NCBI GenBank assembly: GCA_963662715.1
Contig: OY759724.1
Location: 2,790,001 to 2,822,000, forward strand
Source: Candidatus Omnitrophota bacterium
GTDB taxonomy: Bacteria; Omnitrophota; Gorgyraeia; Zapsychrales; JANLHA01
Direction: 5' to 3'
Length of the DNA: 32,000 bases
Positions 2,459 to 17,864 of the stretch are shown piece after piece (positions within the stretch are counted from its first letter, which is position 1; the number at the start of each line of letters is the position of its first letter). The position numbers and the translations under genes are program-made. The notes under the pieces were generated by a model. The model did no database searches, was not told where the DNA came from, and was given only the letters and a program-made list of their open reading frames with translations.

Positions 2459-5400
2459 ATGTTCAATCTAACCAAATTCCGGGGTATTTCTATTTTAACT
2501 TTATTCTTTTTTATCTGTTCTTGTATCATGCCGTATGTGCAAAGAGCTGAAGCAAATGTAGGATTTGTAGTCTTGTATGTTTATGCCTTGCTTTTCCCTG
2601 GTTCGTGGCCGTCCGGAGGGACGAATCTGGGCAGCGGCAACTCAAGCAGCGGCTCAGGTTCCGGCAGCGGCGGTTCACAAAACGGCCCCCAAAACCCGCA
2701 GACCCTCGATAAAGACTGTCCCAACGGGGATTGTGTGGGGATGTGGTCAAGCCCGAATCCTGTCTCTTACTACAGCGGGCAGGAGAGTTTCAGCCACGTG
2801 GATTTAACAATCCCCGGCCTTGGCATGGATGTGGTCATTGCCCATTCCTATAAAAGTGTGTTTGACTTTAATAATCAGTTCGGCTACGGCTGGATGCTGA
2901 ATTATTACGGCCGTCTCATCCCCCTGTCAAACGGCAACGTCACCGTTATTCTGGGAGAGGACAGCAGCGTCAATACGTTCACCTATTCCGGGGGCGAATT
3001 TATCCCGCCTTACGGCGTGTTCCAGGAATTAAAACAGAACAGCGGCGGCACCTGGACTCTCACCAAAGAGCACGGGAAACAATATCATTTTGACTTGAAC
3101 GGCAATTTGGCTTCTATAAAAGACCGTAACGGCAACGAGATCAAGTTTACCTACTCGATCGGGACATATCCTATCCTTGACAGCGGTACCGGAGACGTTC
3201 TGGCCAATGATTACCGCCTCCTGCACATTACGGATACGCTTACCCGTAACATTGATTTGGTGTATAACCCGTCCGGGCGCCTGGCCGCGATTTATGACCC
3301 CCTGGGCCGTTCCGTGACGTATTCCTACGACCCTAATACGGATGACCTTCTGTCCATAACCCTGGAAGGCGTGAGCCCGTATCCTTCGGGGCTCAGCAAG
3401 CAGTTTACTTATAATGCCGACCATAATCTGGAAAGCGTTACGGATGCCAAGGGCCAGACCTATTTGGTGAACCATTATGATACAGACCAAAGGGTGTACC
3501 AGCAGGATTACGGCAACGGCAGTATTCTCATGGATTATGATGATGTCTTCGGCACAACAACGGTGACCGACCGTAAAGGGAATGTTAAAAAATATACTTT
3601 CACGTCCAGCGGGGAAGCGCAGATCATCGAAACCTTTACCAGCGGGCTGCGCGCCGGGGAGCCGGGCAGTTACAATACCTATTATGCCTTTAACTATCTT
3701 TCCAAACCTGTCCAGGTCAAGTACCCGAACAAAAACGGCATTATGTACACCTATGATACGTCTAATTTAGATCCCCGCGCAAAAGGCAATCTCCTGCAGA
3801 TCAAGCGTGTGGCGGATATGGACGATCCCTATACCACGGATGTCCTGGCCACGAACATGACCTATGAACAGGAGTACAATCAGGTCAGCACGGTTACAGA
3901 CCCGGAAGGCAATATCGTGACCTATGTCTATGATTATCAGCTTATGACCTCGGACCCCCGTTTCGATGACAAGGGAAATCTGGCAAGGATCATTTATCCT
4001 GCGGTGAACGGCCAGACCCCTGTCATTGACTATACGTACAATCAATACGGCCAGGTGACGGAGATCGAAGACCCGAACGACAATATCACCCAGTATACTT
4101 ATTATGCCTCCAGCGGGCTTGTGTATCAAATCATTCAGGACCCGGGCGGGATCAATGCGGTCACCACCTTCACCTACGATACGTACTTAAACATCGATAC
4201 GATCACTGATCCGAACGGGCACACCACGGATTTTGATTATAATGAAATCGGCTGGCTCATGGAGACCACGAACCATCTGGGGTACAGCACGCGCTACACC
4301 TATGATGCCAACGGGAATGTCACGCAAATCGACCGGCAGGCGAATGCCTCCGGGACAAGCTGGCAGACCACAATATATACTTATGATATTCTAAATCATG
4401 TCCGGACCATGACCGATCCGCTGGGCCGGATAACCACCTATACCTATGACAATGAAGAGAACCTCATATCTGTCGAAGACGCGGAAACGAATGTCACCAC
4501 TTACGAATATGATGAACGGAATCTTTTGTTCACCGTCACGGACGCCAACACGCCAGGAGGTGTCACCCGTTATGATTATGACTGGAACGGCAACCTGCAG
4601 AAAATTCATGACGCTAACGGGCACATCACGGAATATCAGTATGACGAATTCAACCGCCTGGTGACAACCATATACCCGGATTCATCCGCCACCTGGTTTG
4701 AATATGACGATAATTCCAACCTCGAGCTGCAGACACTCGCCAGCGGCGAGACCGTCACCTATGAATATGATGAATTGAACCGGCTGACGGACAAACGTTT
4801 CCCGTCTCATCCGTCTCTGGATGTGTCCTATTCCTATGATGTGGGGTCGCGTATGCTGACGGCCGATACCGCGGCCGGCGCGATAAGCTTCACTTATGAC
4901 CATCTGAACCGCGTGGATGCCACGACCCAGACCGTCGCCGGGCTGGCGGCCAAGACCGTTGATTATACGTATGACCAGGCCGGCAACCGCACGCAGGTGG
5001 AGTATCCTTCAACGAAAACCGTTGTTTATGATTATGATGAGATCAACCGCTTGACCAATGTGGAGGTGGACGGCGCGTCTTTGGTGGATTTTACCTATGA
5101 TACTTTAAACCGGCGGACATTAAAGAGTTTTACGGCCGCGCCATCGCTGGATACCTCCTACGCTTATAATAATGATAACACCCTGGACAATATGGTGAAT
5201 CAAATCAACGGCGGGGCTGTGATTTCGCAGTATAGTTATGCGTATGATGGGGTAGGCAACCGTATCGGCGTGATAACGGCCGCTGATAACATCACCTATA
5301 ATTACAATGATATTTATGAGCTTACGTCCGTGACCGGCAGTCAAAGCCATGCTTATGATTATGATGGTGTTGGCAATCGCCTGACCGCCGATAGCCTTAC

Positions 5401-6487
5401 TTACGTCCCGGATGAATTGAATCAGTATGATTCGGTGGACAGTGTGACCTTTACCTATGATCAGACCGGCAACCTTACCGATGACGGGAATAATACTTAC
5501 AGTTATGATGAAGAGAACCGGTTAACGGACGCAAGTAATGTTTCCCATGTCGCGATCTATCAGTACGATGCCTTTAACCGGCGGGTTAGCAAGAATGTCG
5601 ATGGGGTTGTGACGTATTTTGTGTATGATGGCGATGAGGTGATAGCGGAATACGATTCGTCAGGTATTCTTGAATCTGAGTATGTGTATTCCGATAACAT
5701 CGATGAAGTTTTAACGATGGACAGGAACCTCACAACGTATTATTATCATTATGATGGTTTGGGATCGGTCACGGAAGTGACTGACCTTGCCGGTGCTGTT
5801 CAGGAATCGTATAAATATGATCCTTACGGACAGCCTTCGTTCTTTGACGGTTCTGGTTCACCTTTGACCGAGAGCTCAATCGGCAATCCCTACATGTTCA
5901 CCGGAAGAAGATGGGACAATGAGACGGATATCTATTATTATCGGGCTCGAATGTATGACCCTACGATAGGGAGATTTTTGCAGAGAGATCCGATTGGGTA
6001 TGAAGATGGGATGAATTTGTACAGTTATACAAAAAATAATCCCATCAATTATGTCGATCCATCTGGCGAGATTACTTTATATTTCGCTGTAGTTTCTGGT
6101 ATAATGATATTGGTCCTTGTCACTGAATTTGCAGTGCTTTCTATCGCAGGCTCAATGCAATTATTGGACGAACCAAAGAAATGTGAAATACTGCGTGCAG
6201 TCAAGTATGTTTTGAATGAAATAAGTAACCTTTTTTCAGAAGATTTAACGGGTAAAGAAAATTTGTATAAAATAGAAGACTATGGTGAAATAGGTGAAAT
6301 TAAAAATGCAGACCTTGCAGAAAAAGAGAAAGATCCCTCTTTTTCCCCTGCTGCTGATTTAGCAGCAACTGTTTTATTAGATTCTGATCCTGATGAAATT
6401 ACATTGTTTTACCCTTTACCTATACCAAAACCACGATATTTTGGAACATATGATTTTAATAGGGGATTTGTACCACTACCTAAGTAG
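2459..6487 (+). CDS. Rhs/YD-repeat polymorphic toxin (1342 aa). It has an N-terminal signal/anchor and Gly/Ser linker, a YD-repeat shell, an Rhs-associated core ending NPINYVDPSGE, then a ~139-aa C-terminal toxin tip of unknown family.
   Basis: Dozens of YD repeats (YTYD..GN...). Core signature YYYHYDGLGSVTEVTD..YDPYGQ..NPYMFTGRRWDNETDIYYYRARMYDPTIGRFLQRDPIGYEDGMNLYSYTKNNPINYVDPSGE. No PAAR, VgrG or LXG motifs seen. Confidence 0.95.
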   Translation: MFNLTKFRGISILTLFFFICSCIMPYVQRAEANVGFVVLYVYALLFPGSWPSGGTNLGSGNSSSGSGSGSGGSQNGPQNPQTLDKDCPNGDCVGMWSSPNPVSYYSGQESFSHVDLTIPGLGMDVVIAHSYKSVFDFNNQFGYGWMLNYYGRLIPLSNGNVTVILGEDSSVNTFTYSGGEFIPPYGVFQELKQNSGGTWTLTKEHGKQYHFDLNGNLASIKDRNGNEIKFTYSIGTYPILDSGTGDVLANDYRLLHITDTLTRNIDLVYNPSGRLAAIYDPLGRSVTYSYDPNTDDLLSITLEGVSPYPSGLSKQFTYNADHNLESVTDAKGQTYLVNHYDTDQRVYQQDYGNGSILMDYDDVFGTTTVTDRKGNVKKYTFTSSGEAQIIETFTSGLRAGEPGSYNTYYAFNYLSKPVQVKYPNKNGIMYTYDTSNLDPRAKGNLLQIKRVADMDDPYTTDVLATNMTYEQEYNQVSTVTDPEGNIVTYVYDYQLMTSDPRFDDKGNLARIIYPAVNGQTPVIDYTYNQYGQVTEIEDPNDNITQYTYYASSGLVYQIIQDPGGINAVTTFTYDTYLNIDTITDPNGHTTDFDYNEIGWLMETTNHLGYSTRYTYDANGNVTQIDRQANASGTSWQTTIYTYDILNHVRTMTDPLGRITTYTYDNEENLISVEDAETNVTTYEYDERNLLFTVTDANTPGGVTRYDYDWNGNLQKIHDANGHITEYQYDEFNRLVTTIYPDSSATWFEYDDNSNLELQTLASGETVTYEYDELNRLTDKRFPSHPSLDVSYSYDVGSRMLTADTAAGAISFTYDHLNRVDATTQTVAGLAAKTVDYTYDQAGNRTQVEYPSTKTVVYDYDEINRLTNVEVDGASLVDFTYDTLNRRTLKSFTAAPSLDTSYAYNNDNTLDNMVNQINGGAVISQYSYAYDGVGNRIGVITAADNITYNYNDIYELTSVTGSQSHAYDYDGVGNRLTADSLTYVPDELNQYDSVDSVTFTYDQTGNLTDDGNNTYSYDEENRLTDASNVSHVAIYQYDAFNRRVSKNVDGVVTYFVYDGDEVIAEYDSSGILESEYVYSDNIDEVLTMDRNLTTYYYHYDGLGSVTEVTDLAGAVQESYKYDPYGQPSFFDGSGSPLTESSIGNPYMFTGRRWDNETDIYYYRARMYDPTIGRFLQRDPIGYEDGMNLYSYTKNNPINYVDPSGEITLYFAVVSGIMILVLVTEFAVLSIAGSMQLLDEPKKCEILRAVKYVLNEISNLFSEDLTGKENLYKIEDYGEIGEIKNADLAEKEKDPSFSPAADLAATVLLDSDPDEITLFYPLPIPKPRYFGTYDFNRGFVPLPK

Positions 6488-6493
6488 AATATT

Positions 6494-6727
6494 ATGACAG
6501 ATAATGAATTTGACTTGTTAAGAGCTCAAAGTGATAAAAATAAAATTAACGGATTATTTATTGCTGGAATAATTGGTAGTATAGGTTTTATTTCTCTAGC
6601 TTGTTATATGTTTACCCAAATTGACATAGCTACAGGAGCATCTATTGTTATGTTAATTTGGGGATTAGTAATACTGATCACAACAACAAGCATTTTTTTG
6701 TCTTATAAGATAAAAAACAAAAAATAA
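6494..6727 (+). CDS. putative cognate immunity protein, 77 aa with two predicted TM helices
   Basis: Starts 6 nt after the Rhs stop. Hydrophobic stretches GLFIAGIIGSIGFISLACYMF and ASIVMLIWGLVILITTTSIFLSY. AT-rich like the toxin tip. Confidence 0.6.
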   Translation: MTDNEFDLLRAQSDKNKINGLFIAGIIGSIGFISLACYMFTQIDIATGASIVMLIWGLVILITTTSIFLSYKIKNKK

Positions 6728-6736
6728 GATGTTAAA

Positions 6737-6773
6737 GAGACACAATACTTAACTCGGCCAATCCCCACCGCCG
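6737..6773. repeat. cassette-end repeat (right part), copy after the main immunity gene
   Basis: AGAGACACAATACTTAACTCGGCCAATCCCCACCGCC matches 12513-12551 and 14103-14142. A degenerate left part, ATGAAAGTACCAGTCC, lies at 6805-6820. Confidence 0.7.
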
Positions 6774-6918
6774 TTGCCAGATTTGGCTTTAGTGATCATG
6801 TTGAATGAAAGTACCAGTCCAAAATATTAAAATACTACAGCTAAAATGTTGATAACTTTGCTGTAGTTTTCATTTTTTGCTCTTTTTCATATAGGACATT
6901 TCGAAAAGCATCCAATAG

Positions 6919-7380
6919 TCTGATCCTACGATTGGGAGGTTTTTGCAAAGAGATCCAGTAGGATACTTTGATTCGATGAGTCTATATGAATATGCCGATA
7001 GTGTCGGAAAACCTATTGTAGAAACAAATCTGTACTCTTATACCGGAAATGACCCCGTAAATTGGATAGATCCTTTGGGTTTGTTGAAGAGGGATCATCG
7101 TTTCTGGGAGAATGTCAAAGAAGGGGTAATGAATAATCTTAAAAAGAAGTATGCTAAGTTTAAGAAAGAGAATCCCTGTGAAGAAGCTCCGCCAATTGCC
7201 GGGGAAGATTTGGAGAGCTCATTAGATAAATTTGCAGAAGCTTTTGCCGATGAATTAACAGAGAAAGAATTCGGTTTCTTGGGCAGGGGCGTTGAAAAAA
7301 ATAGTGATGCTGTTAAGGAACGCTTAAAAATTAAATATCCTGATTGGCCATGGGAAGAATGGGACATAATTTTTAAATGA
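6919..7380 (+). CDS. orphan Rhs C-terminal cassette 1: short core-homology (DPTIGRFLQRDPVGY...NDPVNWIDPLGL) plus a ~99-aa helical toxin tip of unknown family
   Basis: The frame opens at 6919, directly after a stop. About 100 nt are homologous to main rhs around 5955-6060. DPLGL lies at 7069-7083. There is no ATG; the only possible start is TTG at 6943. Confidence 0.8.
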   Translation, partial: SDPTIGRFLQRDPVGYFDSMSLYEYADSVGKPIVETNLYSYTGNDPVNWIDPLGLLKRDHRFWENVKEGVMNNLKKKYAKFKKENPCEEAPPIAGEDLESSLDKFAEAFADELTEKEFGFLGRGVEKNSDAVKERLKIKYPDWPWEEWDIIFK

Positions 7381-7754
7381 GAAATAACCTGAGAGAGCAC
7401 GTTCCAAGGCGGAAACTAATATTGGGATGTTTTATGGGGTTTTGCTTTGGTATTCTAATAATCGTTTGCGGGGATTTTGTTTCAAATATTCCGAATTATT
7501 CAAGCAGCTTTTTCCTGAATTCAATTTATTGGGTATGTACCTATTTAGCCAGTGTGGCGGCAATACTGGCAAAGCTAATATTAGGAACATTCTTTAATAA
7601 ATGGTACTCAGTGGTATTAAATTTAATCGCATTGATGTATTTTTCAGTATTGGGAATGTGTTGTGTTGTTCTGTTTAGAAGGGGTAAAAAAATTTTTATA
7701 TTTGTTTTCATTGCTCTTCTGGTCGTTCATGGAGCAGGTCTGTATTTATTCTGA
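7377..7754 (+). CDS. putative immunity protein for orphan 1, polytopic membrane protein (about 4 TM)
   Basis: ATGA start/stop overlap with the orphan toxin. Four long hydrophobic segments. Confidence 0.6.
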   Translation: MRNNLREHVPRRKLILGCFMGFCFGILIIVCGDFVSNIPNYSSSFFLNSIYWVCTYLASVAAILAKLILGTFFNKWYSVVLNLIALMYFSVLGMCCVVLFRRGKKIFIFVFIALLVVHGAGLYLF

Positions 7755-11628: not shown

Positions 11629-11991
11629 GGCTCGATTGGATTGTCGTTTTTAAGGGCAGCGAAGGCGAGGGGAAAAAATCCAATATTAGGCAAACAACGA
11701 GTAGGAAGTGGATTAAAGGATGATTTTGTAAAACCTATATATGATGATAGTGGAAGAATAATAAAAGAGTTTCCTGCTAAAGCCAAAGCACATGGATTCC
11801 CCGATATTATTGACAATTTTGCTTCTGGGGCTAAAAAATTTAGACTTAGAAAAGGAGTCAATTTATACCAATTAGAAGGATCATATAATGGTGTTGAAGG
11901 AAGATTTGAATGGATTGTTGAACAAGGTAAAGTAACTCATCGAATGTTTGTTCGTGGAGGAAAAATAACAGGAGGACCTATTGTACCATGA
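11629..11991 (+). pseudogene. orphan toxin tip A: only the last 15 codons of the shared pre-toxin module (GSIGLSFLRAAKARG) remain, fused to a ~105-aa tip of unknown family
   Basis: 11629-11674 matches 13442-13487 and 15730-15775 almost exactly and begins immediately at the IS right end. Tip motifs: AHGFPDIIDNFA and GVEGRFEWIVEQGKVTHRMFVRGG. Confidence 0.7.
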
Positions 11992-12530
11992 AAGCTGATT
12001 TAAAAGAGTTTGAAGATATCTTTCCTATTAACTGGACTACCTTACTACTTGGATTAGAGGGGCCTGGGAATTATTTGAATGTTATTTCTACACTTGATGT
12101 AGTTAATTATGTAGAGCAAAAAGTTAATAAAGATGCAATTATTTGTAATCAGCTTGTGATGAGTTTATCTAATTATTCTGATGATAAGACGGCTTTGATT
12201 GCTTGTTTAAGAGAATTAATAAAGACTGAAGATGAAGATATGGATGTTGAACTTAAGAAATGGCAATTGTATTTATTGAAAAAGACTATTGCCTCATTAC
12301 CAGAGGATCCTATTCATGGTTTGATTATGTTAACAGATTTTTGGGAGAAATTTGATTATCCTGAAAATAGCCCTCATAAAGTACAAGGAAAGGATGTCTC
12401 AACTCATCCCAATGACTATTATACTAAGGATAATTATATTAGAATTGTACAACAACATGAAAATTGGCTAAAAAATGAAATTGTAAAGAGGATGAAAGTG
12501 CCAGTCCCCAGAAAGGGACATAATACTTAA
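11988..12530 (+). CDS. putative immunity protein for tip A (180 aa, cytoplasmic, unknown family)
   Basis: ATGA overlap with the tip A stop. AT-rich. The last 12 codons (MKVPVPRKGHNT) are encoded by the cassette-end repeat. Confidence 0.55.
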   Translation: MKADLKEFEDIFPINWTTLLLGLEGPGNYLNVISTLDVVNYVEQKVNKDAIICNQLVMSLSNYSDDKTALIACLRELIKTEDEDMDVELKKWQLYLLKKTIASLPEDPIHGLIMLTDFWEKFDYPENSPHKVQGKDVSTHPNDYYTKDNYIRIVQQHENWLKNEIVKRMKVPVPRKGHNT

Positions 12531-12754
12531 TTCGGCCAATCCTCACCGCCGATCCGATCTTTTTAACCTTTAGTTTTGTCGTTGTTCAGATGCAATGCAT
12601 TCGTTCACGGTTCCAAGTTCACTCATGCATATACATCTGAACCGGTACCCGTTCTTCGCGGAAGATACATTTGATCTTTGATAAATTAATATCCTGTTTT
12701 GTTGCTCTCTGACGAATCGTATCCAAGAGAGAGTTGTTATCACTTGTCTCTGAC
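12495..12754. repeat. cassette-end repeat plus ~250-bp inter-cassette spacer, copy 1 (uninterrupted)
   Basis: About 98% identical by eye to 14101-14192 + 15343-15499. It contains the small hairpin GTCCC-CAGAAA-GGGAC and the empty IS target CATT at 12598-12601. Confidence 0.85.
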
Positions 12755-12823
12755 CTGTCGGTCAGTTTGCTGCTTTTGCAGCAACAAATCTCCCTGCCGG
12801 AGCTTTGAGACAAGTTTTTTACT

Positions 12824-13780
12824 TTGGACAGGAACTCCAACACGTATTATTATCATTATGACGGTAATGGTTCAGTGACAGAAGTGACTGATGCCTCTGG
12901 GAATATACAAGAAAGTTATACATACAGTCCTTATGGCCAGTCTTTGATCTTTGATGATTTGGGCGCACCGTTAACCTCCAGTAATATTGAAAATCCGTAT
13001 ATGTTTACTGGACGTCGCTGGGATGACGAGACGGGCATTTATTATTACCGGGCGAGGATGTATGATCCGGCGATAGGAAGGTTCCTGCAGAGAGATCCGG
13101 TGGGTTATGCGGATAGTATGAACCTGTATTCCTACGCGGGGAATTCCCCGGTGAATGCCTCTGATCCTTTGGGGTCAAGGATTAAGTGGAACTGGACGGG
13201 GGCGTGGAGGTCTATAAGAAACAATGCCGGTGCTTTTCTTGTCGCGGCTATCGGTTGTGCTATTTTGCCAGAAACTGCTTTAGCAGCGCTGGCCGGAAGT
13301 TTTGCCGCACAGATATTGGCAGCCGCAGGGCTGGCGGGGTTAGGCTGGCAAGCCCAGCAAGTTCTTAACCGGTTTCGTTCAAAGAAGCTGTATGATGATC
13401 CTCTCACCACCGAGATGCTCATGAACGTCTTCATCGGTTTAGGCTCGATTGGATTATCGTTTTTAAGGGCAGCGAAGGCGAGGGGAAGAGTAAGAGGATA
13501 TCGTGCTGTTTCTAATGCAGAATTAGACGATATAGCAGAGTATAAGGGCTTTAGACCTGATCCTAAAGGTCGGTCAATGGAAGATAAGTGGTTTTCTGAA
13601 ACTAGAGAAGGGGCTGAGAAATTTTCAAATATGTATCCAGAGTTGGAAAACATAGTCGAAGCCGAAGTCCCAAAATCAGTTTATAACAAAGCTTATCACC
13701 ATCCCAATATTGATAATACAGGGCCTGGTTTTGCTATTCAACCAGAACAACTTCCTAAAGTAAAGCCTATTATAGAGTGA
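12824..13780 (+). CDS. orphan Rhs C-terminal cassette B: ~115 aa of Rhs core homology (to ...NSPVNASDPLGS), a ~105-aa hydrophobic pre-toxin module, and a ~97-aa toxin tip B
   Basis: DRNSNTYYYHYDGNGSVTEVTD...YYYRARMYDPAIGRFLQRDPVGY parallels main Rhs residues around 5710-6070. DPLGS lies at 13163-13177. The only possible start is TTG. Confidence 0.85.
   Translation: MDRNSNTYYYHYDGNGSVTEVTDASGNIQESYTYSPYGQSLIFDDLGAPLTSSNIENPYMFTGRRWDDETGIYYYRARMYDPAIGRFLQRDPVGYADSMNLYSYAGNSPVNASDPLGSRIKWNWTGAWRSIRNNAGAFLVAAIGCAILPETALAALAGSFAAQILAAAGLAGLGWQAQQVLNRFRSKKLYDDPLTTEMLMNVFIGLGSIGLSFLRAAKARGRVRGYRAVSNAELDDIAEYKGFRPDPKGRSMEDKWFSETREGAEKFSNMYPELENIVEAEVPKSVYNKAYHHPNIDNTGPGFAIQPEQLPKVKPIIE
13213..13487 (+). 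repeat. shared pre-toxin module, copy in cassette B (encodes IRNNAGAFLVAAIGCAILPETALAALAGSFAAQILAAAGLAGLGWQAQQVLNRFRSKKLYDDPLTTEMLMNVFIGLGSIGLSFLRAAKARG)
   Basis: Near-identical to 15501-15775 (about 10 mismatches by eye). Similarity stops exactly after the AKARG codons. Confidence 0.9.
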
Positions 13781-13788
13781 GGTGTCAT

Positions 13789-14085
13789 ATGTTGATTTTA
13801 GAAGCAGCTGTCGTTTGGATTAAACCAGAGTTTGGTGGTAGATCAATTAAACCTTTAATAGGTTTAAGACCGATCATTAGATTTCAGAAATACATCTCGG
13901 AATGGTTAAGTACTGCATGGGATGTTGAGATTATTGATCTTGATATCGATAATGACGATTGGTCTGGCAAAGTCAAAATGAAATTTTCTGGGAATGCTAC
14001 ACCAAAAAAAGAATGGCTGAAAAAAGGAGAATTGATTGAATTGTTAGATGCTTACAGAGTGATTGCTATAGGGAAAATAATTTAA
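13789..14085 (+). CDS. putative immunity protein for tip B with EF-Tu domain III-like sequence (98 aa)
   Basis: A GAGG Shine-Dalgarno lies at 13779-13782, and the ATG is 8 nt after the toxin stop. [28 protein letters not shown] compares with E. coli TufA [54 protein letters not shown] compares with [26 protein letters not shown]. Confidence 0.6.
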   Translation: [98 protein letters not shown]

Positions 14086-14100
14086 CGAAGAAATAAATAG

Positions 14101-14192
14101 AGAAAGGGACACAATACTTAATTCGGCCAATACTCACCGCCGATCCGATCTTTTCAACCTTTAGTTTTGTCGTTGTTCAGATGCAATGCATT
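14101..14192. repeat. cassette-end repeat plus spacer, copy 2, left part (interrupted by IS copy 1)
   Basis: Matches 12511-12601 with 3 mismatches. It ends with CATT, the duplicated target. Confidence 0.85.
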
Positions 14193-14206
14193 TGTAATGA
14201 CCCTAG

Positions 14207-14998
14207 TTAAGCAAGGATTTTTTTGTGTAGATCGAGTTCTTTGTTAATCCATCTTTTGTAAAACTCTTCAGGCGTAGCGAAGAATAATGCCTGATGAGGG
14301 AAATCGGTGTTGTAATCGTTGATCCAACGCTTGAAGTCATCTTGAAGATCAAATGGGTTGTCCCATTCATTGATCCAAATGAAATCTTCTTTGATTCTGC
14401 GGATGACGCGTTCGGTGTCAGCATTGCCTTTGGGGTTGGACCAGGTTGAGAAGATCTGCTTGATGCCGGCCAGTGAACAATTAAGCCTGAAGCGCCCGCT
14501 GGTGGGCTGACAGCCATTGTCCGAGATCAGGTGCAGGTCATGATTCAGTGTGTCTTTGATGCCGTTTGGGAATCGGTTGTTGATGGCCATTTCCAGGGCA
14601 TCCAGCCAGTCATCAGTCTTTGACTGGATGTTGAGGCTATAGCCGATAATTTCTTTGGTATACCAGTCTAGGACGATGGTCAGATAGAACCAGCCCCAGG
14701 TCGCCAGTTTGATTTTTGTCATATCGATACCCCAGAATTGATTGGGGTGAGAAGCTCGTGGTTTCCGGCGGAGGTTGCCACGCTTGGCCTTCAAGCGATC
14801 GTTGGGTTGAACCGTTAATTGATTTTCTTGCATGAGGCGTTGGACACAATTTTTGCCAATTTTGTAATGTTTACGGTTGTTTAAATAGGCCCAGACTGAA
14901 CGGTATCCCCAGAGGGGATGTTGCTTTTTAATTTGTCGGATTTTGACTAAATGTTTTTGGTCTTGTTCGATACGCTTTAGAGAACGGCGTCTTTTCAT
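14207..14998 (-). CDS. IS3-family transposase OrfB (rve/DDE)
   Basis: WGIDMT...LISDNGCQP...NADTERVIRRIKED is a DDE triad pattern. It lies in the -1 frame relative to orfA, with an ATGA overlap. Confidence 0.85.
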   Translation of the reverse strand: MKRRRSLKRIEQDQKHLVKIRQIKKQHPLWGYRSVWAYLNNRKHYKIGKNCVQRLMQENQLTVQPNDRLKAKRGNLRRKPRASHPNQFWGIDMTKIKLATWGWFYLTIVLDWYTKEIIGYSLNIQSKTDDWLDALEMAINNRFPNGIKDTLNHDLHLISDNGCQPTSGRFRLNCSLAGIKQIFSTWSNPKGNADTERVIRRIKEDFIWINEWDNPFDLQDDFKRWINDYNTDFPHQALFFATPEEFYKRWINKELDLHKKILA

Positions 14999-15300
14999 AA
15001 CTCGTACTCGTTTTTTTTTAGTTCAACGGTCAAGTCGCCGATGATGCGTTTGAGTTTGGCGTTTTCTTTTTCAAGACGTTGCTCTTTCTGGGACTGTTGT
15101 TTGATGTCAAAGGCCATATGGCATTCTTTGAGGAACTGGTCGCGCCATTTGTAATATTGGGTTTGGCCAATTTGGTATTTGTTACAAAGTTTACTGATGT
15201 CGATTTTCCCGCTGAGGCCTTCAAGCACGATTTGGGTCTTTTGTTGGCTGGTCCATTGGCGTTTTTTCATGGGAATTGGGCTCCTTTCCTTGGAACTCAA
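14995..15300 (-). CDS. IS3-family transposase OrfA (HTH); an A9 slippery run just before its stop (T9 at 15011-15019 on the + strand)
   Basis: KRQWTSQQKTQIVLEGLSGKIDISKLCNKYQIGQTQYYKWRDQF is an HTH_Tnp pattern. The -1 frame is open from the A-run into orfB. Confidence 0.85.
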   Translation of the reverse strand: MSSKERSPIPMKKRQWTSQQKTQIVLEGLSGKIDISKLCNKYQIGQTQYYKWRDQFLKECHMAFDIKQQSQKEQRLEKENAKLKRIIGDLTVELKKNEYEL

Positions 15301-15342
15301 TTCTACACCATTTGTTTAAATTTGTTAACTAGGGTCACTATA

Positions 15343-15499: not shown

Positions 15500-16092
15500 A
15501 TATAAGAAACAATGCCGGTGCTTTTCTTGTCGCGGCTATCGGTTATGCTATTTTGCCAGAAACTGCTTTAGCAGCGCTGGCCGGAAGTCTTGGAGCGCAG
15601 ATATTGGCAGCCGCAGGGCTGGCGGGGCTAGGCTGGCAAGCCCAGCAAGTTCTTAACCGGTTTCGTTCAAAGAAACTGTATGATGATCCTCTCACGACCG
15701 AGATGCTCATGAACGTCTTCATCGGTTTAGGCTCGATTGGAGTGTCGTTTTTAAGGGCAGCGAAGGCGAGGGGAAGTGTTCAATTTAGAAGTAAGTTGAG
15801 TACTCAGAAACAAATGAGACATTTAAGAGGAACAGCTGCTCCTAATAGAAGTTATTTTGATTCTATTGATGATGCTCAAGCGGTTCTAGATGCTTATAAT
15901 AGTGGAAATTATAAATTAATTAGTCAGAATCCGGCACAAAATACTGTAACTATTGAAGTAAAGAATATTACTGGTAGATATGTAAATATAGACAACCCTA
16001 AAGGACTTCCGGACTTAAATTTACCAACAAATAAATTCATGATTCAATCATCAAAAGCACCCAAAGTTGTTCCTGTTAATCCATATAAGTGA
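15499..16092 (+). pseudogene. orphan cassette C: pre-toxin module (no Rhs core homology, no ATG) plus a ~105-aa toxin tip C, possibly the polymorphic-toxin type 50 (Ntox50-like) RNase family
   Basis: The frame opens right after TGA 15496-15498. 15501-15775 is near-identical to 13213-13487. Tip: KQMRHLRGTAAPNRSYFDSIDDAQAVLDAYNSGNYKLI...ITGRYVNIDNPKG...TNKFMIQSSKAPKVVPVNP. Confidence 0.65.
15501..15775 (+). repeat. shared pre-toxin module, copy in cassette C
   Basis: See 13213-13487. Confidence 0.9.
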
Positions 16093-16099
16093 GCTAGAT

Positions 16100-16408
16100 A
16101 TGTTAAAAATTAAGGATTTAGAATTAGTCGGAGCATTTCAAAGAGCACTTCTATTTAATATCTCTGCATCAATGCGTTTTATTTCTTGTGAAATAATAAA
16201 TGAGGATATTCTTCAGGTTTATATTTATTTTGACAAGGATCCAACTGAAGAGGAGTTAGATCTCATTTATTCTGTTGCAGGTGAAGTTTGCGGGGATTTC
16301 CCGGGACTTAATAATAGTGATGTGAAACATTTTGTTAATAATAAGGATTTTAATTCTTTAAAACACCTTCGAATATTAGTTTATGCAAGATTTGAAAAAA
16401 ATGAATGA
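16100..16408 (+). CDS. putative immunity protein for tip C (102 aa, unknown family)
   Basis: The ATG lies 7 nt after the tip C stop. AT-rich. Followed by the cassette-end repeat left part at 16414-16440. Confidence 0.5.
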   Translation: MLKIKDLELVGAFQRALLFNISASMRFISCEIINEDILQVYIYFDKDPTEEELDLIYSVAGEVCGDFPGLNNSDVKHFVNNKDFNSLKHLRILVYARFEKNE

Positions 16409-16440: not shown

Positions 16441-16602
16441 GGGCGTTTTTATGCAGTTGAATAATGCAGGGAAAGAGATATAATATTTATATTCCCCTGA
16501 TGTTTTCCCCGGGTAAACAGAAAGGGGATTTTTTATGCCCAGAGTCGCCAGAAGAGAGGTGTTGTATAACGGGTGTTATGCGCATGTCTGTAATGACCCT
16601 AG

Positions 16603-17394
16603 TTAAGCAAGGATTTTTTTGTGTAGATCGAGTTCTTTGTTAATCCATCTTTTGTAAAACTCTTCAGGCGTAGCGAAGAATAATGCCTGATGAGGGAAAT
16701 CGGTGTTGTAATCGTTGATCCAACGCTTGAAGTCATCTTGAAGATCAAATGGGTTGTCCCATTCATTGATCCAAATGAAATCTTCTTTGATTCTGCGGAT
16801 GACGCGTTCGGTGTCAGCATTGCCTTTGGGGTTGGACCAGGTTGAGAAGATCTGCTTGATGCCGGCCAGTGAACAATTAAGCCTGAAGCGCCCGCTGGTG
16901 GGCTGACAGCCATTGTCCGAGATCAGGTGCAGGTCATGATTCAGTGTGTCTTTGATGCCGTTTGGGAATCGGTTGTTGATGGCCATTTCCAGGGCATCCA
17001 GCCAGTCATCAGTCTTTGACTGGATGTTGAGGCTATAGCCGATAATTTCTTTGGTATACCAGTCTAGGACGATGGTCAGATAGAACCAGCCCCAGGTCGC
17101 CAGTTTGATTTTTGTCATATCGATACCCCAGAATTGATTGGGGTGAGAAGCTCGTGGTTTCCGGCGGAGGTTGCCACGCTTGGCCTTCAAGCGATCGTTG
17201 GGTTGAACCGTTAATTGATTTTCTTGCATGAGGCGTTGGACACAATTTTTGCCAATTTTGTAATGTTTACGGTTGTTTAAATAGGCCCAGACTGAACGGT
17301 ATCCCCAGAGGGGATGTTGCTTTTTAATTTGTCGGATTTTGACTAAATGTTTTTGGTCTTGTTCGATACGCTTTAGAGAACGGCGTCTTTTCAT
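16603..17394 (-). CDS. IS3-family transposase OrfB
   Basis: Identical to 14207-14998. Confidence 0.85.
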   Translation of the reverse strand: MKRRRSLKRIEQDQKHLVKIRQIKKQHPLWGYRSVWAYLNNRKHYKIGKNCVQRLMQENQLTVQPNDRLKAKRGNLRRKPRASHPNQFWGIDMTKIKLATWGWFYLTIVLDWYTKEIIGYSLNIQSKTDDWLDALEMAINNRFPNGIKDTLNHDLHLISDNGCQPTSGRFRLNCSLAGIKQIFSTWSNPKGNADTERVIRRIKEDFIWINEWDNPFDLQDDFKRWINDYNTDFPHQALFFATPEEFYKRWINKELDLHKKILA

Positions 17395-17696
17395 AACTCG
17401 TACTCGTTTTTTTTTAGTTCAACGGTCAAGTCGCCGATGATGCGTTTGAGTTTGGCGTTTTCTTTTTCAAGACGTTGCTCTTTCTGGGACTGTTGTTTGA
17501 TGTCAAAGGCCATATGGCATTCTTTGAGGAACTGGTCGCGCCATTTGTAATATTGGGTTTGGCCAATTTGGTATTTGTTACAAAGTTTACTGATGTCGAT
17601 TTTCCCGCTGAGGCCTTCAAGCACGATTTGGGTCTTTTGTTGGCTGGTCCATTGGCGTTTTTTCATGGGAATTGGGCTCCTTTCCTTGGAACTCAA
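17391..17696 (-). CDS. IS3-family transposase OrfA (A9 slippery run = T9 at 17407-17415)
   Basis: Identical to 14995-15300. Confidence 0.85.
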   Translation of the reverse strand: MSSKERSPIPMKKRQWTSQQKTQIVLEGLSGKIDISKLCNKYQIGQTQYYKWRDQFLKECHMAFDIKQQSQKEQRLEKENAKLKRIIGDLTVELKKNEYEL

Positions 17697-17864
17697 TTCT
17701 ACACCATTTGTTTAAATTTGTTAACTAGGGTCACTATATGTCATATCACGGTCGATCCGTAAAATGAAACTGTTCAGAGATGAAGCAGATTTTCGGGAGA
17801 TACGCCACATAAAATTATATCAAGGGAACGGGATGGTGTCATAAGTCCCTAAAAAGGCGAATAA

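Follow-up and report, generated by a model that had tools for sequence, protein, structure and literature searches.

Toxins that bind or modify the elongation factor EF-Tu are known among the Rhs, contact-dependent growth inhibition (CDI) and type VI secretion system (T6SS) toxins. TreTu, the C-terminal toxin of Rhs-main in Salmonella Typhimurium (PDB 7ZHL, 7ZHM), ADP-ribosylates EF-Tu at D21, in the P-loop of domain I, and its residues R6 and E12 are both essential. TriTu, the immunity protein of TreTu, is an alpha/beta lid built from a flat five-stranded antiparallel sheet flanked by two helices. Other toxins use EF-Tu as a cofactor or entry aid, namely CdiA-CT NC101, Serratia Rhs2CT, Salmonella Rhs2 and SRLase1. 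The immunity proteins of polymorphic toxins are usually seen as unrelated, idiosyncratic plugs. Here, a toxin–immunity cassette is described in which the small downstream gene encodes a likeness of EF-Tu domain III. It occupies positions 13484-14085 of a window of 32,000 nucleotides (the whole stretch of DNA analysed: positions 2,790,001 to 2,822,000 of contig OY759724.1, assembly GCA_963662715.1, from a Candidatus Omnitrophota bacterium) and is part of an Rhs polymorphic-toxin array. The layout of such Rhs cassettes is of a standard, known kind; what is probably new is the origin and likely mode of action of the immunity protein, together with the toxin family, called tip B, to which the toxin domain belongs. 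The cassette and the open reading frame (ORF) that carries its toxin comprise the following features (lengths in amino acids, aa, or nucleotides, nt).

12824..13780, plus strand: orphan Rhs C-terminal cassette ORF of 318 aa, in which the end of the Rhs core is joined through a hydrophobic linker to the toxin tip (ORF list).
12923..13174, plus strand: final stretch of the Rhs repeat-associated core, with the cleavage-type motif ...NASDPLGS at its end (TIGR03696, aa 34-117).
13175..13483, plus strand: hydrophobic pre-toxin linker with the terminal junction ...SFLRAAKARG, common to the neighbouring orphan cassettes.
13484..13777, plus strand: toxin domain, tip B, 98 aa, with a predicted ADP-ribosyltransferase-type fold and no Pfam or NCBIfam family.
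13778-13780, plus strand: stop codon TGA of ORF 12824-13780 (sequence).
13779..13782, plus strand: GAGG Shine-Dalgarno, 6 nt ahead of the ATG of the immunity gene (sequence).
13789..14085, plus strand: immunity gene, 98 aa plus stop, with its ATG at 13789, 8 nt past the toxin stop (fold, profile, Pfam, shuffles and pairing with the toxin).

An earlier inspection of the letters, referred to below as the sequence-only reading, had placed the GAGG, the spacing of 8 nt and the 98-aa ORF at these same positions, and all are exact on the sequence. The cassette shares several traits with TreTu–TriTu. Both toxins are borne by Rhs proteins, measure about 100-115 aa and have a minimal, atypical ADP-ribosyltransferase (ART) fold, which is predicted in the case of tip B; both carry an arginine on strand 1 and a glutamate on helix 1 six residues further on (R6/E12 in TreTu, R7/E13 in tip B); and in both a small immunity gene lies directly downstream and the translation machinery, in the form of EF-Tu, is implicated. 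The two systems differ in that no sequence match links the toxins (Pfam PF24691, TreTu_C, is matched by 1 of 49 tip B homologues, at an expectation value (E) of 0.07, and not by the window copy), and in that H31 and W68 of TreTu are without identical residues in the tip B family. TriTu is a flat sheet, whereas an EF-Tu-like barrel is predicted for the 98-aa protein, and the TreTu acceptor D21 lies in EF-Tu domain I, whereas the 98-aa protein resembles domain III. The systems of CdiA-CT NC101 (with CdiI and EF-Tu), Serratia Rhs2CT, Salmonella Rhs2 and SRLase1 are similar in that their polymorphic toxins make use of EF-Tu, be it as cofactor, escort or target, but these toxins are nucleases and not ART folds, their immunity proteins are not described as EF-Tu homologues, and CdiA-CT NC101 binds EF-Tu domain 2.

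Self-protection by mimicry or by a copy of the target is exemplified by the McbG/Qnr pentapeptide DNA mimics and by the resistant extra EF-Tu copies in elfamycin producers. Tdi provides a case of active-site mimicry. In all of these, the protector imitates or copies what the toxin recognises, whereas the candidate decoy described here would be a single excised domain of the target, dedicated to one toxin and encoded inside a polymorphic-toxin cassette.

Taken alone, the 98-aa protein belongs to no Pfam or NCBIfam family, the only match being a chance one below threshold, and it has no meaningful sequence match in the PDB; single-sequence scans of this ORF and of tip B against PHROGs and PADLOC gave no usable match. 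Close relatives number 15 (alignment A1), and a hidden Markov model (HMM) scan of 1.84 billion 50%-identity cluster representatives yielded 113 relatives, nearly all of them stand-alone proteins of about 100 aa. An untemplated AlphaFold2 model of the 98-aa protein (predicted local distance difference test score, pLDDT, 89.9; predicted template-modelling score, pTM, 0.81) was compared with the PDB by Foldseek, and the top 50 matches were all EF-Tu (probability 1.00, E about 1e-4, query template-modelling score (TM-score) 0.62-0.70, about 101 aligned columns), including two entries that hold EF-Tu domains 2 and 3 only. The immunity-family HMM aligns with residues 303-334 and 370-392 of E. coli EF-Tu, which correspond to domain III (the query sequence was 100% identical to E. 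coli records over the 95 aa compared). It scores 19.3 bits on whole EF-Tu, against 10.6 bits for the best of 20,000 shuffled EF-Tu sequences, and 23.8 bits on domain III, against -1.0 on domain I and -0.2 on domain II; a likeness to domain II instead of III is rejected by these per-domain scores. Profile comparison with hhalign, using a family alignment of 97 members, gave a probability of 46% against a single EF-Tu sequence and of 90% (E 1.7e-6, 89 columns) against a domain III profile built from ten species of ten bacterial lineages, placing ORF residues 2-98 on EF-Tu 303-392. The immunity-family profile found nothing relevant in the PDB.

Much of this had been anticipated. The sequence-only reading had aligned the protein with EF-Tu domain III by eye, and both the family HMM and hhalign return the same register; the fold comparison that it proposed led to EF-Tu, and the hhalign value against the domain III profile lies above the approximately 50% on an HHpred-type search below which it would have let the likeness go. 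The comparison with Pfam PF03143 (GTP_EFTU_D3), also proposed there, bore the likeness out in part. The 98-aa window protein has no PF03143 match at E up to 10, whereas across the 97 aligned relatives GTP_EFTU_D3 is the sole repeatedly matched family, weakly and in 12 of them, with a best E of 7.7e-4 and below the gathering threshold. Because of the profile and fold matches, the 98-aa protein is with high confidence considered a true homologue of EF-Tu domain III, remote, highly diverged and stand-alone. A decayed fragment of a tuf gene was considered and rejected, as the family comprises more than 100 diverged clusters of about 100 aa with conserved starts and ends and motifs of their own.

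The likeness to EF-Tu domain III (PF03143) extends to the beta-barrel fold, the strand order, the GGR...[RK]P loop and the C-terminal G.R[TV][VI][GA].G strand, which in the 98-aa protein take the form of a GGR...G.RP loop (GGR-x6-G-x-RP) and a G.RVIA.GKI strand. Across ten bacterial EF-Tu sequences, GGR is invariant and R/K-P is conserved, and few positions of the immunity family are better conserved than these shared residues (G17 100%, G16 97%, R/H18 84%, R27 85%; near the C-terminus, G95 99%). The GGR and R-P residues sit in a long loop of the model and not in the barrel core. Unlike domain III, the immunity protein stands alone at 98 aa, lacks the GTPase domain and domain II, has an extra conserved helix (QRYI..W) between strands 2 and 3, and is encoded in a toxin cassette and not in a translation operon. 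Identity to EF-Tu is about 17%, and the likeness is visible at the profile and fold level only. The GGR loop of EF-Tu is presumably linked to the domain I–III interface and to sites of kirromycin resistance, a point on which a literature search found nothing usable.

Three other proteins with likenesses to domain III or to the immunity-family profile were seen outside the window. P0115 (228 aa) contains four tandem repeats of ...GTEW[IV]RNDFGGRAVNPSTGLG..., each of which matches only the W...GGR...P..GL loop of the immunity-family profile. P0027 (262 aa; locus L016, 2501-3289) has a domain III-like domain fused to a hydrophobic segment and a CxxC...CxxC tail; its gene adjoins a Na+/H+ antiporter gene and has no toxin upstream, which makes it the sole toxin-less domain III-like gene seen, and it could represent a form of the immunity protein that is orphaned or anchored in the membrane. 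A 486-aa 'hypothetical protein' of the Lactococcus lactis plasmid pNP40 (NC_010901.1 33611-35071; locus L050, 1322-2782) resembles EF-Tu domain III in its C-terminus (45% identity); its gene lies two genes downstream of a WYL-domain gene. Since pNP40 is a phage-resistance plasmid, this may be an EF-Tu-like protein associated with defence.

The immunity gene is co-directional with the toxin tip and follows it at the 8-nt gap, with the GAGG as its ribosome-binding site. The pairing was first seen in two loci (L001, L002) and recurs on a mis-binned contig (L004) and in a Gammaproteobacteria metagenome-assembled genome (MAG; L005); altogether, 27 distinct pairs from several phyla have the toxin gene and the domain III-like gene side by side, which bears out the position of an immunity gene that the sequence-only reading had assigned to the ORF directly after tip B. 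Of 23 loci from a metagenome scan anchored on the toxin, 20 show the domain III-like gene as the next one downstream; the exceptions are a contig that stops immediately behind the toxin and two loci whose toxin matches are only partial. A scan of GTDB genomes gave 4 loci only. Conversely, loci fetched via a free-standing immunity gene have the toxin upstream in every complete locus, and among the loci examined no other toxin type was found upstream of immunity-family genes. Even distant relatives of the immunity protein (E 1.6e-7 to 5.8e-4) still lie behind distant members of the tip B family. A Planctomycetales MAG (CAZAXH010000031.1, L003) has a near-identical Rhs linker and cassette organisation and an immunity gene 68% identical to that of the window, and a 9.2-Mb Planctomycetota chromosome (L006) carries a tip B relative as the C-terminus of a full-length, 1327-aa Rhs protein. 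Because conserved gene order of this kind is the signature of cognate toxin–immunity pairs, the 98-aa protein is very probably the cognate immunity protein of tip B, as its putative neutraliser.

The two families also vary together at the level of clades. Toxins with GPGFCVxC are paired with GGH..GMR immunity proteins and toxins with GPGFAVP with GGR..GLRP immunity proteins, one locus (L033) being mixed. As proof of contact between toxin and immunity protein, this co-variation was rejected, since it reduces to one split in the phylogeny, with a mixed case; it fits co-evolution.

Searches gave 74 homologues of tip B; where these bear a name, it is that of a hypothetical protein or, in a few cases, a generic Rhs label. 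They occur in Planctomycetota, in Gamma-, Alpha- and Betaproteobacteria and in a MAG labelled Bacteroidetes. The AlphaFold2 model of tip B, built with 49 homologues (pLDDT 93.9), has a beta-alpha-beta layout with six strands, and its best Foldseek matches in the PDB (E 0.05 to about 0.7) all belong to the ART superfamily: the tRNA 2'-phosphotransferases Tpt1/KptA (E 0.05), TreTu (7zhm_A; probability 0.99, TM-score 0.52, E 0.07) and CC0527. PARP10 follows far behind (E 7.6), and the weakest PDB matches include unrelated chance ones. Among the viral models of BFVD, a mycobacteriophage ADP-ribosyltransferase (E 3e-3), DarT (E 7e-3) and PARP-domain proteins were matched. The E values of the fold matches are modest (1e-3 to 0.1). 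A BECR-like RNase fold found no support in the PDB or BFVD fold searches and was rejected, and the tip B family profile gave only chance matches in the PDB, to the phage P22 terminase. Conserved residues of tip B are R7, S10, E13, D16, K35, F37, F47, P63 and a GPGF motif. Across the family E13, G22, K35, F37 and P63 are invariant and R7, on strand 1 within YRAVS, nearly so; E13 lies on helix 1, six residues after R7. The N-terminal motif presumably recalls YRADSRPPDEIKQSGGL of cholera toxin. An R-S-E triad completed by VEAEVP of the window copy was rejected, as its ExE is not conserved in relatives; thus, the active site of tip B would be atypical, as in TreTu. On the strength of the model, tip B likely has an ART fold, with ADP-ribosyl transfer as its predicted activity. 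The ART fold and the match to TreTu are additions of the present analysis and formed no part of the sequence-only reading.

Two independent lines thus lead to EF-Tu: the antidote is homologous to one of its domains, and TreTu, which is one of the best solved matches of tip B and the nearest to it in size, modifies it. The reading favoured here is that tip B recognises the EF-Tu of target cells via domain III, either as the acceptor site or as a docking surface. The immunity protein would have arisen from a copy of domain III and would bind tip B 1:1 as a pseudo-target, blocking access to the real EF-Tu; it would probably also block the NAD+ cleft of the toxin. The direct evidence consists of the gene-order pairing and the similarities in sequence and predicted fold, from which we infer the mode of binding. 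That the immunity protein works by mimicking EF-Tu, be EF-Tu the target or a cofactor, seems somewhat probable. Recognition of domain III by tip B, countered by a pseudo-target derived from that domain, is held with about even confidence, and that the immunity protein is the duplicated and excised domain III of the toxin's own target, neutralising it as a pseudo-target, is proposed tentatively.

Several observations weigh against this interpretation. The fold matches of tip B are weak (E 0.05-0.1 in the PDB, TM-score about 0.5), and a canonical R-S-E, H-Y-E or H-H-h triad is not evident among the conserved residues of its family. Many relatives with an ART fold act on RNA (Tpt1, RhsP2, Tre23, TreThr). 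TreTu targets D21 in domain I and is countered by an unrelated lid, so that a TreTu-like fold need not entail a mimic of domain III. The immunity family has a conserved W10, an IRFQRY..W helix and a WDVE motif, all absent from EF-Tu, and the motifs that it does share with EF-Tu are those that any remote-homology method would find first and may serve folding, not mimicry.

The resemblance might be unrelated to recognition altogether, an ancient domain III barrel having been recruited as a scaffold that plugs the NAD+ cleft of a toxin whose target is unconnected with EF-Tu. The structures of immunity proteins vary greatly, and their usual mode of action is to occlude the active site, as TriTu does for TreTu; the low identity to EF-Tu and the conserved elements of the family's own speak for such a history. 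It would, however, be a coincidence that the fold of tip B also points to an EF-Tu-modifying relative, and the strong conservation of the EF-Tu-specific GGR and R-P residues argues against mere scaffolding, although their position in the long loop tempers this point. Recruitment without mimicry is regarded as rather unlikely.

A second possibility keeps the mimicry and changes the substrate. Tip B could act on RNA (aminoacyl-tRNA or rRNA) or on something else, with EF-Tu domain III serving as its docking, activating or import site, for which the immunity protein competes. The RNA-acting Tpt1/KptA are among the top fold matches of tip B, some Rhs ART toxins are known to modify tRNA or rRNA, and the toxins named at the outset need EF-Tu, either as a cofactor or for help with entry. 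In the ternary complex, the GGR loop of domain III presumably also lies adjacent to the tRNA T-stem, for which a literature search found nothing usable. RNA targeting by tip B, however, found no support in this analysis, and a decoy for a cofactor must out-compete the highly abundant EF-Tu unless it also blocks the active site; a cofactor decoy is held to be quite unlikely. It is very improbable that the domain III-like protein shields the acceptor site on EF-Tu or is ADP-ribosylated in its place: docking of a free domain III on domain I of the open GDP form of EF-Tu is conceivable in principle, but EF-Tu is far too abundant for an accessory protein this small to shield it stoichiometrically, a catalytic toxin cannot be halted by a sacrificial substrate, and the one-to-one genetic coupling and clade-level co-variation fit direct binding of the toxin.

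Full-text literature searches found no EF-Tu-like or target-mimic immunity protein, and the part of the polymorphic-toxin catalogue that was searched contains no mention of EF-Tu (Zhang et al., 2012). Both the immunity family and the tip B family are unannotated in Pfam (2025), NCBIfam (2026), PHROGs and PADLOC, in agreement with the sequence-only reading, to which no immunity family of this type was known. An immunity family homologous to a domain of an essential and often-attacked protein suggests that antidotes can evolve from the target itself, and the fold of an immunity protein could then serve to predict what an uncharacterised toxin attacks. The analysis also defines a widespread, unannotated family of ART-like toxins of about 100 aa, with EF-Tu domain III as a concrete proposed target. 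That domain is also of interest for antibacterial targeting, at a site other than the P-loop attacked by TreTu. If the pseudo-target reading is true, this would be the first target-derived decoy immunity in polymorphic toxin systems, and EF-Tu domain III with its GGR/R-P face would be a recognition or modification site of new, widespread mini-ART toxins.

Downstream of the full-length rhs gene of the window (2459-6487) lie orphan C-terminal cassettes, and a small gene comes after each of them. This rhs gene has its own unannotated C-terminal tip and is followed by the small ORFs 6943-7380 and 7377-7754, which have no Pfam family; together (6100-7754) they likely form another toxin–immunity set. 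The ORF at 12824-13780 lacks the N-terminal region and most of the full Rhs core; the Rhs_assc_core match (TIGR03696, NCBIfam) covers aa 34-117 at E 6.7e-25, and 12816-13115 is 71% identical in DNA sequence to 5709-6008, in the 3' core of the full-length gene. The linker is repeated, 13213-13491 being 96% identical to 15501-15779, and the FLRAAKARG junction also precedes different toxin tips in the ORFs starting at 11641 and 15553, the tips diverging after it. The features that surround the tip B cassette are as follows.

11641-12530: orphan cassette with an unknown 116-aa tip (tip ORF 11641-11991) and a DUF2247 protein (ORF list, Pfam).
14088..14195, no strand assigned: inter-cassette repeat, its 3' end cut by the insertion of an insertion sequence (IS; repeat families D5 and D6).
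14193..15342, minus strand: insertion sequence of 1150 bp with IS3-like two-ORF transposase genes (ORFs 14207-14998 and 14995-15300).
15553-16408: orphan cassette with an Ntox50 tip (E 2e-7; tip ORF 15553-16092) and a 113-aa ORF without known family (ORF list, Pfam).

One copy of the inter-cassette repeat follows each immunity gene of the array (6719-6784, 12497-12604 and 14088-14195). It has a conserved sequence of 66-95 nt containing ...GGGACACAATACTTAATTCGGCCAATCCTCACCGCCGATCCGATCTTT... and may be a recombination, terminator or regulatory element. The insertion sequence at 14193-15342 is 100% identical over 1150 bp to a second copy at 16589-17738. Its terminal inverted repeats are TGTAATGACCCTAGTTAA / TATAGTGACCCTAGTTAA, and a CATT target duplication flanks the first copy. 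Since this copy split the inter-cassette repeat and left the CATT duplication, its insertion is recent. With an insertion sequence just downstream and no N-terminal Rhs region, the toxin of the orphan cassette may be silent here. The immunity gene retains its own ribosome-binding site.

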